From Escherichia coli (GTDB lineage: Bacteria > Pseudomonadota > Gammaproteobacteria > Enterobacterales > Enterobacteriaceae): DNA of 64,000 nt. The position numbers are program-made. Below, in pieces: positions 15,001 through 18,000 of this stretch. The stretch lies in NCBI RefSeq assembly GCF_003991155.1, contig NZ_CP031293.1. One strand, written 5' to 3'. How positions within the stretch are numbered: position 1 is the first letter of the stretch; the number at the start of each line of letters is the position of its first letter.

Positions 15001-18000
15001 CATTGCATGCCATAATAGAGACCAATAAAAATAAGCTAAAAAGCATTAAGTTTACTTTCATAGAAAGTTATCCTGAAAATGGTTCACTGAAAACCTACGA
15101 CGTTATTGCTGTATTTACATATAATTAATCAGTATTTACATCGATATAATAAATGACATCTCTTTTTGGTATATAAGAATAATTCTCTGTGACAGGAAGC
15201 ATATTCCTACAACTGTAAGACTAAATGCCGCTTTGCGATAATAACTACAGTTGTAAGATAACCCTTTCAAAATGTCCGTTGCTCTCTGATTTCTCATTTC
15301 ATGCTCACCCAATATGATGGCGGCGTTTTCTAAAACTGTTAAAGAATGAGGTAAGTATGAAACGTTTAATTATGGCTACGATGGTCACAGCAGTTCTGGC
15401 ATCTTCAACTGTATGGGCTGCTGATAATGCACCGGTAGCGGCACAACAGCAAACTCAGCAAGTTCAGCAACCCCAAAAAACGGCAGCAGCAGAGCGTATC
15501 TCTGAACAAGGTTTATATGCGATGCGTGACGTGCAGGTAGCGCGCCTGGCTCTGTTTCATGGCGATCCGGAAAAGGCAAAAGAACTGACCAATGAAGCTT
15601 CCGCTTTGCTGTCTGATGATAGTACCGAATGGGCAAAGTTCGCAAAGCCAGGTAAAAAGACCAATGTCAATGATGACCAATATATTGTCATTAATGCATC
15701 TGTCGGAATTTCTGAGAGTTATGTAGCGACACCCGAAAAAGAAGCCGCGATAAAAATTGCCAACGAAAAAATGGCGAAAGGGGATAAAAAGGGCGCAATG
15801 GAAGAGCTTCGCCTGGCCGGTGTTGGTGTAATGGAAAACCAATATCTGATGCCGCTTAAACAGACTCGTAATGCACTTGCTGATGCGCAGAAACTGCTTG
15901 ATAAAAAGCAATACTACGAGGCAAACCTGGCGCTTAAAGGTGCGGAAGATGGAATCATCGTCGATAGCGAAGCACTGTTTGTGAACTAAAGCTGACAGGC
16001 AATATATTGAGGTAAAGGATTTTACTCCCTCCAGCCGACAATTTTTTATGGCCACAATACGACAGGTTGTGGCCATAAAATTATTTGGCGCTCGCGGTTC
16101 TATAAACTCGAATTTTATCTTCCTCAAAGTAAACCGCAATAATCCCGTGTTATCACAAATCATTTATTATGTTATGTTTTATGGTACGCTTTAAAAAGCG
16201 TAATCATACCCTTACTTGTAAATCACTGGCGCTTCTTACAGTTGTAAGAATAACATCACAAATGTCGCGGCTCTCTCTGATTACCGCGAGCCAATATTTA
16301 TCATATTCTTCTTTTCGTCCTCACTACTTACCATGCAGAAAGGAATTGGAAGTAGCGATGAAATGATTTTCAGTACTTGATACAGGAATTTAAAAATATC
16401 GAGTGCAGCTACGACGATATTTTGCGGATTATTTATAGAGGCGTTATGTCTTAAATAAACGCTAAATTAACACATATTTAATTAACTAATAGGTATTGCT
16501 ATGTCAACTCCACTTCAAGGAATTAAAGTTCTCGATTTCACCGGTGTGCAATCTGGCCCATCTTGTACTCAAATGCTGGCCTGGTTTGGCGCTGACGTCA
16601 TTAAAATTGAACGTCCCGGCGTTGGTGACGTAACGCGTCACCAGCTGCGAGATATTCCTGATATCGATGCGCTTTACTTCACCATGCTTAACAGTAACAA
16701 ACGTTCTATTGAATTAAATACCAAAACAGCGGAAGGCAAAGAGGTAATGGAAAAGCTGATCCGCGAAGCTGATATCTTAGTCGAGAACTTTCATCCTGGG
16801 GCCATTGATCACATGGGCTTCACCTGGGAGCATATTCAAGAAATCAATCCACGTCTGATTTTTGGTTCGATCAAAGGGTTTGATGAGTGTTCGCCTTATG
16901 TGAATGTAAAAGCCTATGAAAACGTTGCTCAGGCAGCGGGTGGCGCGGCATCCACTACGGGTTTTTGGGACGGTCCGCCGCTGGTAAGCGCTGCAGCGTT
17001 GGGTGACAGCAACACCGGAATGCATTTACTGATCGGTTTACTTGCTGCTTTGCTGCATCGCGAAAAAACGGGGCGTGGGCAACGAGTCACCATGTCAATG
17101 CAGGATGCCGTATTGAACCTTTGCCGCGTGAAATTACGCGACCAGCAGCGTCTCGATAAATTGGGTTATCTGGAAGAATATCCGCAGTATCCGAATGGCA
17201 CATTTGGTGATGCAGTTCCCCGCGGAGGTAATGCGGGGGGGGGCGGTCAGCCTGGCTGGATCCTGAAATGTAAAGGCTGGGAAACCGATCCTAACGCCTA
17301 TATTTATTTCACTATTCAGGAGCAAAACTGGGAAAACACCTGTAAAGCTATCGGCAAACCAGAATGGATTACCGATCCGGCATACAGTACAGCTCATGCC
17401 CGACAGCCACATATTTTCGATATTTTTGCTGAAATCGAAAAATACACTGTCACTATTGATAAACATGAAGCTGTGGCCTATTTGACTCAGTTTGATATTC
17501 CTTGTGCACCGGTTTTAAGTATGAAAGAAATTTCACTTGATCCCTCTTTGCGCCAAAGTGGCAGTGTTGTCGAAGTGGAACAACCGTTGCGTGGAAAATA
17601 TCTGACAGTTGGTTGTCCAATGAAATTCTCTGCCTTTACGCCGGATATTAAAGCTGCGCCGCTATTAGGTGAACATACCGCTGCTGTATTGCAGGAGCTG
17701 GGTTATAGCGACGATGAAATTGCTGCAATGAAGCAAAACCACGCCATCTGATATTAACGGGGGCTTCTGGCTCCCAATTTATAAAAATTTCGAGGTTATT
17801 AATCATGTCAGATCAACTTCAAATGACAGATGGTATGCATATCATCGTTGAAGCATTAAAACAGAATAATATTGACACTATTTATGGTGTTGTAGGTATT
17901 CCTGTTACGGATATGGCGCGCCATGCCCAGGCGGAAGGCATTCGTTATATTGGTTTTCGTCATGAGCAGTCGGCAGGCTATGCCGCTGCAGCAAGCGGTT

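Follow-up and report, generated by a model that had tools for sequence, protein, structure and literature searches.

The DNA analysed here is a 64,000-nucleotide segment of the Escherichia coli chromosome (the window, hereafter), which carries ypdI, yfdX, the frc-oxc-yfdV-yfdE genes and the evgS-evgA pair. Of 5,426 E. coli genomes available in complete form, 5,423 contain the part between positions 14700 and 16700, annotated as ypdI, yfdX and frc. Open reading frames, matched to the K-12 annotation, place ypdI (14786-15061) on the minus strand and frc (16501-17751), oxc (17805-19499), yfdV (19568-20512) and yfdE (20547-21731) on the plus strand; the yfdX coding sequence (15357-15989, plus strand) is taken from the open reading frames and from the RefSeq annotation of identical DNA. 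The minus-strand genes evgS (21787-25380) and evgA (25385-25999), which encode a sensor kinase and a response regulator, together occupy 21787-25999. The EvgA and Frc proteins of the window are identical to those of K-12, and EvgS differs from its K-12 counterpart at 36 of 1197 residues. Both intergenic regions, before yfdX and before frc, are AT-rich, with 34-36% GC against 47.6% for the whole window.

Three 18-bp palindromes lie in these intergenic regions, at exactly the coordinates that an earlier note, made from the sequence alone, had given for them: a distal box upstream of yfdX (box 1, TTCCTACAACTGTAAGAC, 15204-15221), a proximal EvgA-box-like palindrome (box 2, TAACTACAGTTGTAAGAT, 15242-15259) and a box upstream of frc (TTCTTACAGTTGTAAGAA, 16233-16250), none of them assigned to a strand. 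The first two are 38 bp apart in the 295-bp region preceding yfdX. We compared them with TTCYTACANNTGTARGAA (TTCYTACA-N2-TGTARGAA), an 8+2+8 inverted repeat that we take to be the EvgA consensus; a full-text literature search for this string or for the term 'EvgA box' returned nothing usable. A scan of K-12 upstream regions found the same palindrome before safA (one mismatch), ydeP (two), yegR (one) and emrK/evgA (two), and the empirical consensus derived from these sites (ccTACa..tGTAaGAa) agrees with the assumed one. The frc box had been described as perfect, and it is: it has no mismatch to the consensus and its 8-bp arms are perfectly inverted. Box 1 has one mismatch and box 2 has three, and their 8-bp arms are symmetrical at six and five positions, respectively. 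When up to three mismatches are allowed, the window contains five matches against 0.72 expected, a number that none of 100 shuffles reached. All three palindromes thus carry the motif, box 2 weakly.

The two further matches are of different kinds. One lies in the emrK-evgA intergenic region (26224-26241, no strand assigned), has two mismatches and is identical in sequence to the K-12 box; it serves as an internal positive control. The other, at 41055, scores 12.6 bits inside an open reading frame of 2639 amino acids and was set aside as probably due to chance.

A scan with a position-weight matrix, which had been suggested as a check, separates the three palindromes more sharply. The matrix was symmetrised and trained solely on the four other K-12 sites (safA, ydeP, yegR, emrK). 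The frc box scores 22.2 bits, a value reached in none of 200 random 64-kb sequences, and box 1 scores 18.45 bits, for a chance expectation of 0.01 per 64 kb. Both values far exceed chance. That of box 2 does not, since 0.78 matches at its 11.87 bits are expected per 64 kb, and it would not be significant alone. The claim that two boxes precede yfdX is therefore borne out by score for box 1 and by context for box 2, which we accept because it lies 38 bp from box 1, is conserved across genera and shares its promoter register with the frc box.

Variation within the species falls mostly outside the arms of the palindromes. In nine diverse E. coli sequences (those of the window, K-12, LF82, O157:H7, a divergent GTDB representative and four more), no variation affects the arms of box 1 or of the frc box, and those of box 2 show a single change, in the GTDB representative, where TAAC has become TCAC. 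The 2-bp spacers do vary (AC/AT in box 1, GT/AC in box 2, GT/GC in the frc box). In the same set, only 1 of the 18 columns of the frc box is variable, compared with 28% of those in the intergenic DNA just upstream, and the variability between box 2 and the -10 hexamer is 8.5%, against 9.0% in the yfdX coding sequence. The window is the same locus as in K-12, in a non-K-12 strain, and the boxes of the two differ by their spacers alone (AC versus AT in box 1, GT versus AC in box 2), to which are added the substitutions in EvgS.

Comparisons between genera point in the same direction. Yersinia vastinensis has the entire yfdX-frc-oxc-yfdV-yfdE-evgS-evgA cluster, with the boxes in place (EvgA 93% identical): the counterpart of box 2 is TAACTACAGCTGTCAGAT, and that of the frc box, at the homologous place, is TTCTTACACGCGTAAGAA. 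The frc box and about 55 bp downstream of it have hardly changed from E. coli to Yersinia and form the best-conserved non-coding block between them, whereas the DNA upstream is scrambled. Several Buttiauxella species lack the frc operon and have yfdX directly beside evgS/evgA-like genes (EvgA 71% identical). Their single yfdX box (TTCTGACATATGTAAGAC) aligns with box 2 of E. coli, not with box 1, and is followed downstream by a CTCTGAT block and then by a -10-like hexamer. Box 1 is found at the same position in Escherichia and Yersinia only, and cannot be aligned in Buttiauxella. The palindromes are accordingly conserved where evgSA is present, with constrained arms and a free spacer.

Box 2 and the frc box also appear to stand in a fixed relation to the predicted promoters that they precede. 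In every genus having them, box 2 and the frc box are followed, without gaps, by 26 nt and then by CTGATT, which sets the centre of this hexamer 38 nt from the centre of the box at both loci. The corresponding position reads CCTATT at safA, CTTATT at ydeP, CCTATT at yegR and CCTCTG at emrK. Alignment reveals a conserved CTCTGATT block (15283-15291, plus strand) between box 2 and the -35-like hexamer, with a counterpart at equal distance from the frc box; the CTCTGAT within it is invariant in all eight aligned sequences from Escherichia, Yersinia and Buttiauxella. An alternative alignment of the DNA preceding yfdX and frc, with gaps allowed, was discarded, as it needed a 25-nt gap and the ungapped register also keeps the spacing to the -10 hexamer. 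In six of six E. coli EvgA promoters and in three orthologues, 61.5-62.5 nt separate the box centre from the start of a TAnnnT hexamer, and this is the sole offset at which all six E. coli promoters agree. For box 2 and the frc box alike, the distance from the centre to the start of the -10-like hexamer is 62.5 nt; box 1 is out of this register. The window and the K-12 EvgA regulon (ydeP, safA-ydeO, yegR, emrKY/evgAS, yfdX and frc) have in common the repeat, the genes and the spacing from box to predicted -10.

This geometry helps to place the core promoters. A consensus scan predicts a yfdX promoter, TTCTCA-16-TATGAT (15291-15318, plus strand), from which transcription would start near 15325 (about 2,494,434 in K-12 coordinates). 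Upstream of frc, the conserved CTGATT block and a predicted -10 hexamer (TATTCT, 16304-16309) extend over 16277-16309 on the plus strand with the same spacing as at box 2, suggesting a start near 16316 (about 2,493,440 in K-12 coordinates) and a 5' untranslated region of about 185 nt. The -10 hexamers at both loci are predicted at the level of consensus, and at frc an alternative, TATCAT, occurs 5 nt upstream. With about 62 nt between the centre of the box and the -10-like hexamer downstream, the EvgA box would be centred near -74, a position resembling that of class I upstream activators.

Several features of the spacer between yfdX and frc are those expected of two separate transcription units. 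A terminator-like hairpin follows yfdX (16044-16080, plus strand), with a stem of 15 pairs followed by TTATTTGG and an RNA folding energy of -22.4 kcal/mol (z = -4.4). It is kept in Yersinia, and a compensatory change from G-C to A-T distinguishes the window from K-12. An Rfam scan of 14700-16700 returned only a meaningless, sub-threshold miRNA match, on this hairpin. A genomic SELEX study places an RNAP-sigma70 site between frc and yfdX and flags H-NS in the same spacer; the hexamers given there (TTTATA-18-AATAAT in K-12) fall at 16114-16143 of the window, upstream of the frc box. In strain p10A, an IS1 element has inserted between yfdX and the frc box, which stays beside frc. The suggestion in the earlier note that the frc box provides an internal entry point fits the hairpin, the RNAP-sigma70 site and the conservation of the box with its ~55 downstream base pairs, and together these observations fit frc-oxc-yfdVE being its own transcription unit with its predicted promoter.

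The boxes before yfdX and frc are not new: they are described EvgA sites, which we have re-discovered. EvgA activates yfdXWUVE, and inverted repeats bound by EvgA have been reported upstream of yfdX and yfdWUVE (PMC3720670, the latter citing Masuda & Church 2003). A PyfdX-yfp fusion is used as an EvgA reporter, said to be 'directly activated by phosphorylated EvgA' (PMC5706723, citing Itou 2009); its signal at pH 7 was too small to appear in the figure, and responsive strains induced it at pH 5.7 (PMC5706723). In an evgS-constitutive mutant, frc was the most strongly induced gene, and EvgA sites were found only at already-known targets (PMC4283999). A differential-expression table from ribosome profiling and RNA-seq under acid stress lists yfdX, frc, oxc and yfdV together, with values of ~4-5, and binding of EvgA to the emrKY promoter region has also been reported (citing Kato 2000). 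The boxes thus lie upstream of genes that rise upon activation of EvgS/EvgA, and the literature agrees with the earlier proposal that both promoters are directly activated by EvgA.

We consider it very probable that the palindromes are EvgA operators through which yfdX and the frc-oxc-yfdV-yfdE unit (16501-21731, plus strand) are each activated from a sigma-70 promoter of their own, the second being driven from the frc box. Under this model, EvgS would phosphorylate EvgA, a response regulator of the NarL/FixJ family whose gene lies some 10 kb away in the window, and an EvgA dimer would bind each 8+2+8 inverted repeat. Bound EvgA would activate, from near -74, the two weak sigma-70 promoters, with the terminator-like hairpin presumably separating the yfdX unit from the frc unit. 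It would do so on weak, AT-rich DNA that SELEX flags as bound by H-NS, and we infer that EvgA may counteract silencing by H-NS. At yfdX, the weak proximal box 2 would occupy the canonical register. The stronger box 1, distal to it by 38 bp, would be an extra site that probably aids the occupancy of box 2, the two boxes acting in cooperation. The natural signal that induces the system in the strain of the window is uncertain, because its EvgS departs from K-12 about as much as that of strain MP1, a B2 strain with 39 differences, and B2 variants of EvgS are mostly unresponsive to pH 5.7 (PMC5706723). The spacer haplotype of the window matches that of LF82, also a B2 strain.

The arrangement has a parallel in the BvgA protein of Bordetella, a homologue of EvgA that recognises inverted TTTCCTA heptads in front of the fha and bvg promoters. 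Both are NarL/FixJ-family regulators phosphorylated by an unorthodox kinase, and their sites have similar half-sites (TTCCTA), inverted and upstream of the core promoter. BvgA promoters often have extra sites of lower affinity that are filled cooperatively. The likeness stops at the organism and the regulon, which are different.

Could the palindromes be accidents of AT-rich intergenic DNA, given that a comparable match occurs by chance within the open reading frame at 41055? The number of consensus matches and its absence from shuffled sequences, the tail probabilities of the matrix scores and the conservation specific to the arms, within and between genera, all say otherwise, and because of these statistics and this conservation we regard the chance explanation as refuted. 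A narrower doubt concerns box 2, which might be a degenerate half-match, leaving box 1 and the frc box as the only functional sites and yfdX under the control of box 1 alone. In its favour, box 1 is a far stronger match and box 2, with its three mismatches, is of a quality expected almost once per window by chance. This is nevertheless unlikely: it is the position of box 2 that is kept in Buttiauxella, which lacks box 1, and it is box 2, not box 1, that shares the CTGATT and -10 register of frc and the -10 offset of four other EvgA promoters. Its arms, moreover, have changed once across the nine E. coli.

Two other explanations, both very improbable in our assessment, would retain the boxes and change their meaning. 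The palindromes might be bound mainly by another regulator of the NarL/FixJ type, such as RcsB, with an indirect dependence on EvgA. RcsB does regulate yfdX in Klebsiella pneumoniae, where it binds the yfdX promoter in EMSA, and yfdX is a target of acid stress in both species. The half-sites of the RcsAB box (TaAGaatatTCctA), with the letters TAAGA/TCCTA, resemble those of EvgA but point outward (everted) relative to them, and the best RcsAB-like match of the window, GAAGCATATTCCTA (15196-15209), extends into the left arm of box 1. It is weak, the pattern is only mildly enriched in the window (12 matches against 6 expected, with up to three mismatches), and the homologous Yersinia sequence shows, by eye, no such match. 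PyfdX is called directly activated by phosphorylated EvgA in the literature (PMC5706723), and the palindrome of box 1 and box 2 is found before other EvgA targets as well and accompanies evgSA from genus to genus. We keep the RcsAB-like box as a weak lead only. The remaining explanation denies the frc box a promoter of its own: frc-oxc-yfdVE would be expressed by read-through from yfdX, and the box would have another role or none. Several papers do write of a 'yfdXWUVE operon', and a search of the Cappable-seq and SMRT-Cappable-seq supplements for start-site coordinates near the predicted starts gave no occurrences. Against it stand the conserved hairpin between yfdX and the frc box, the exceptional conservation of the block that begins with this box, a promoter register identical to that at yfdX, the position of IS1 in p10A and the separate mention of 'yfdX and yfdWUVE' in PMC3720670. 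Independent activation of the two promoters by EvgA remains our preferred explanation.

Published accounts of yfdX and the oxalate/formyl-CoA genes as targets of EvgA go back to 2003-2009, and PyfdX serves routinely to report EvgA activity; reading the sequence alone has recovered a documented regulatory element. What the comparative analysis adds is the fixed geometry between box and predicted promoter across the regulon, the distinction between proximal and distal boxes at yfdX, and a three-box allele of yfdX, which is carried by 415 of the 5,426 E. coli genomes, that of strain EC7518 being an example. As for longer arrays, only 126-bp (three-box) spans were found among the top matches, and the coverage statistic is confounded by the joining of pieces. 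These additions raise the possibility, which we put forward tentatively, that yfdX is governed by a two-tier switch in which box 2 is ancestral and sets the register, box 1 is a later anchor of affinity, and unequal crossing-over between the two boxes produces a copy-number polymorphism of 38 bp. We found no description of such a switch or polymorphism in the literature searched, which covered the primary EvgA papers only through later work citing them. If this is true, the 38-bp polymorphism could tune the strength or the earliness of the yfdX response to phosphorylated EvgA in natural isolates.

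The two EvgA boxes upstream of yfdX, box 1 (15204-15221, distal) and box 2 (15242-15259, proximal), vary in spacer and in number in E. coli. Among the E. coli sequences compared, the central spacer dinucleotides (15212-15213 in box 1 and 15250-15251 in box 2 of the window) are linked and define two haplotypes: AC in box 1 with GT in box 2 in the window, LF82 and N64, and AT in box 1 with AC in box 2 in K-12, O157:H7 and others. The change from GT to AC in box 2 is a double substitution, equivalent to an inversion of the central dinucleotide. A further allele carries three boxes. 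In strain EC7518 (L018, 103-196, the counterpart of window 15204-15259), a 38-bp tandem duplication has given rise to a third, hybrid box (TAACTACAATTGTAAGAC) that lies between the other two, as would be expected if box 1 and box 2 had undergone unequal crossing-over. By its diagnostic junction, this allele was detected in 415 of the 5,426 complete genomes of E. coli. We also searched for arrays of more than three boxes at yfdX, and the best matches listed span three boxes only.

The best RcsAB-box-like match of the window, GAAGCATATTCCTA (15196-15209, two mismatches), runs into the left arm of box 1, and yfdX is under RcsB regulation in Klebsiella pneumoniae. This RcsAB-like match is not conserved in Yersinia, as judged by eye on the homologous sequence. 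Downstream of yfdX, a long hairpin (16044-16080) whose conservation reaches Yersinia has a compensatory base-pair change in its stem (GGCCAC/GTGGCC in the window, GACCAC/GTGGTC in K-12), and it looks like a terminator, though with an interrupted U-tract. Both intergenic regions have been hit by insertion sequences that left the boxes intact: an IS1A lies between yfdX and the frc box (16233-16250) in strain p10A, and an IS5-like ISKpn26 lies upstream of box 1 in strain 24AR0376. In strain PK8217, an internal stop makes yfdX a pseudogene.

Pairwise likeness among EvgA promoters extends beyond the box itself. In K-12, the safA and ydeP promoters (6072-5960 and 8748-8487 of locus L002) have some 35 nt in common downstream of the box, while ydeP and yegR (the latter at 8431-8307 of locus L003) have ATTTAAACACTA.GAGAG in common, farther downstream. 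The promoters of yfdX, at box 2, and of frc have CAAATGTC...CTCTCTGATT in common. Such extended likeness suggests that these promoters arose by duplication or have an additional element in common. As for the regulators themselves, EvgA is identical to that of K-12 and EvgS (21787-25380) differs from K-12 EvgS at 36 residues; EvgS proteins of such divergence (B2-type) are mostly without response to mild acid, according to a previous study (PMC5706723). The plus strand also carries a very long ORF (36377-44296, 2639 aa), inside which lies another consensus match, at 41055, that is probably there by chance.

Related clusters occur outside E. coli. In Buttiauxella spp. (L007-L012), yfdX directly adjoins evgS/evgA-like genes, the frc operon is absent, and a single box precedes yfdX. 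One of these loci, L008, has two boxes (9880-9897 and 14778-14795), of which the second, TGACTACATGTGTAGGAA, precedes the evgA-like gene by about 227 bp, near the E. coli spacing of 233.5 bp. Yersinia vastinensis IP38594 has the complete yfdX-frc-oxc-yfdV-yfdE-evgS-evgA cluster (L006, 9849-20587), with 83% identity to E. coli in YfdX and 93% in EvgA, and with the EvgA boxes at their places. These features suggest that the regulated module was transferred horizontally as a whole.
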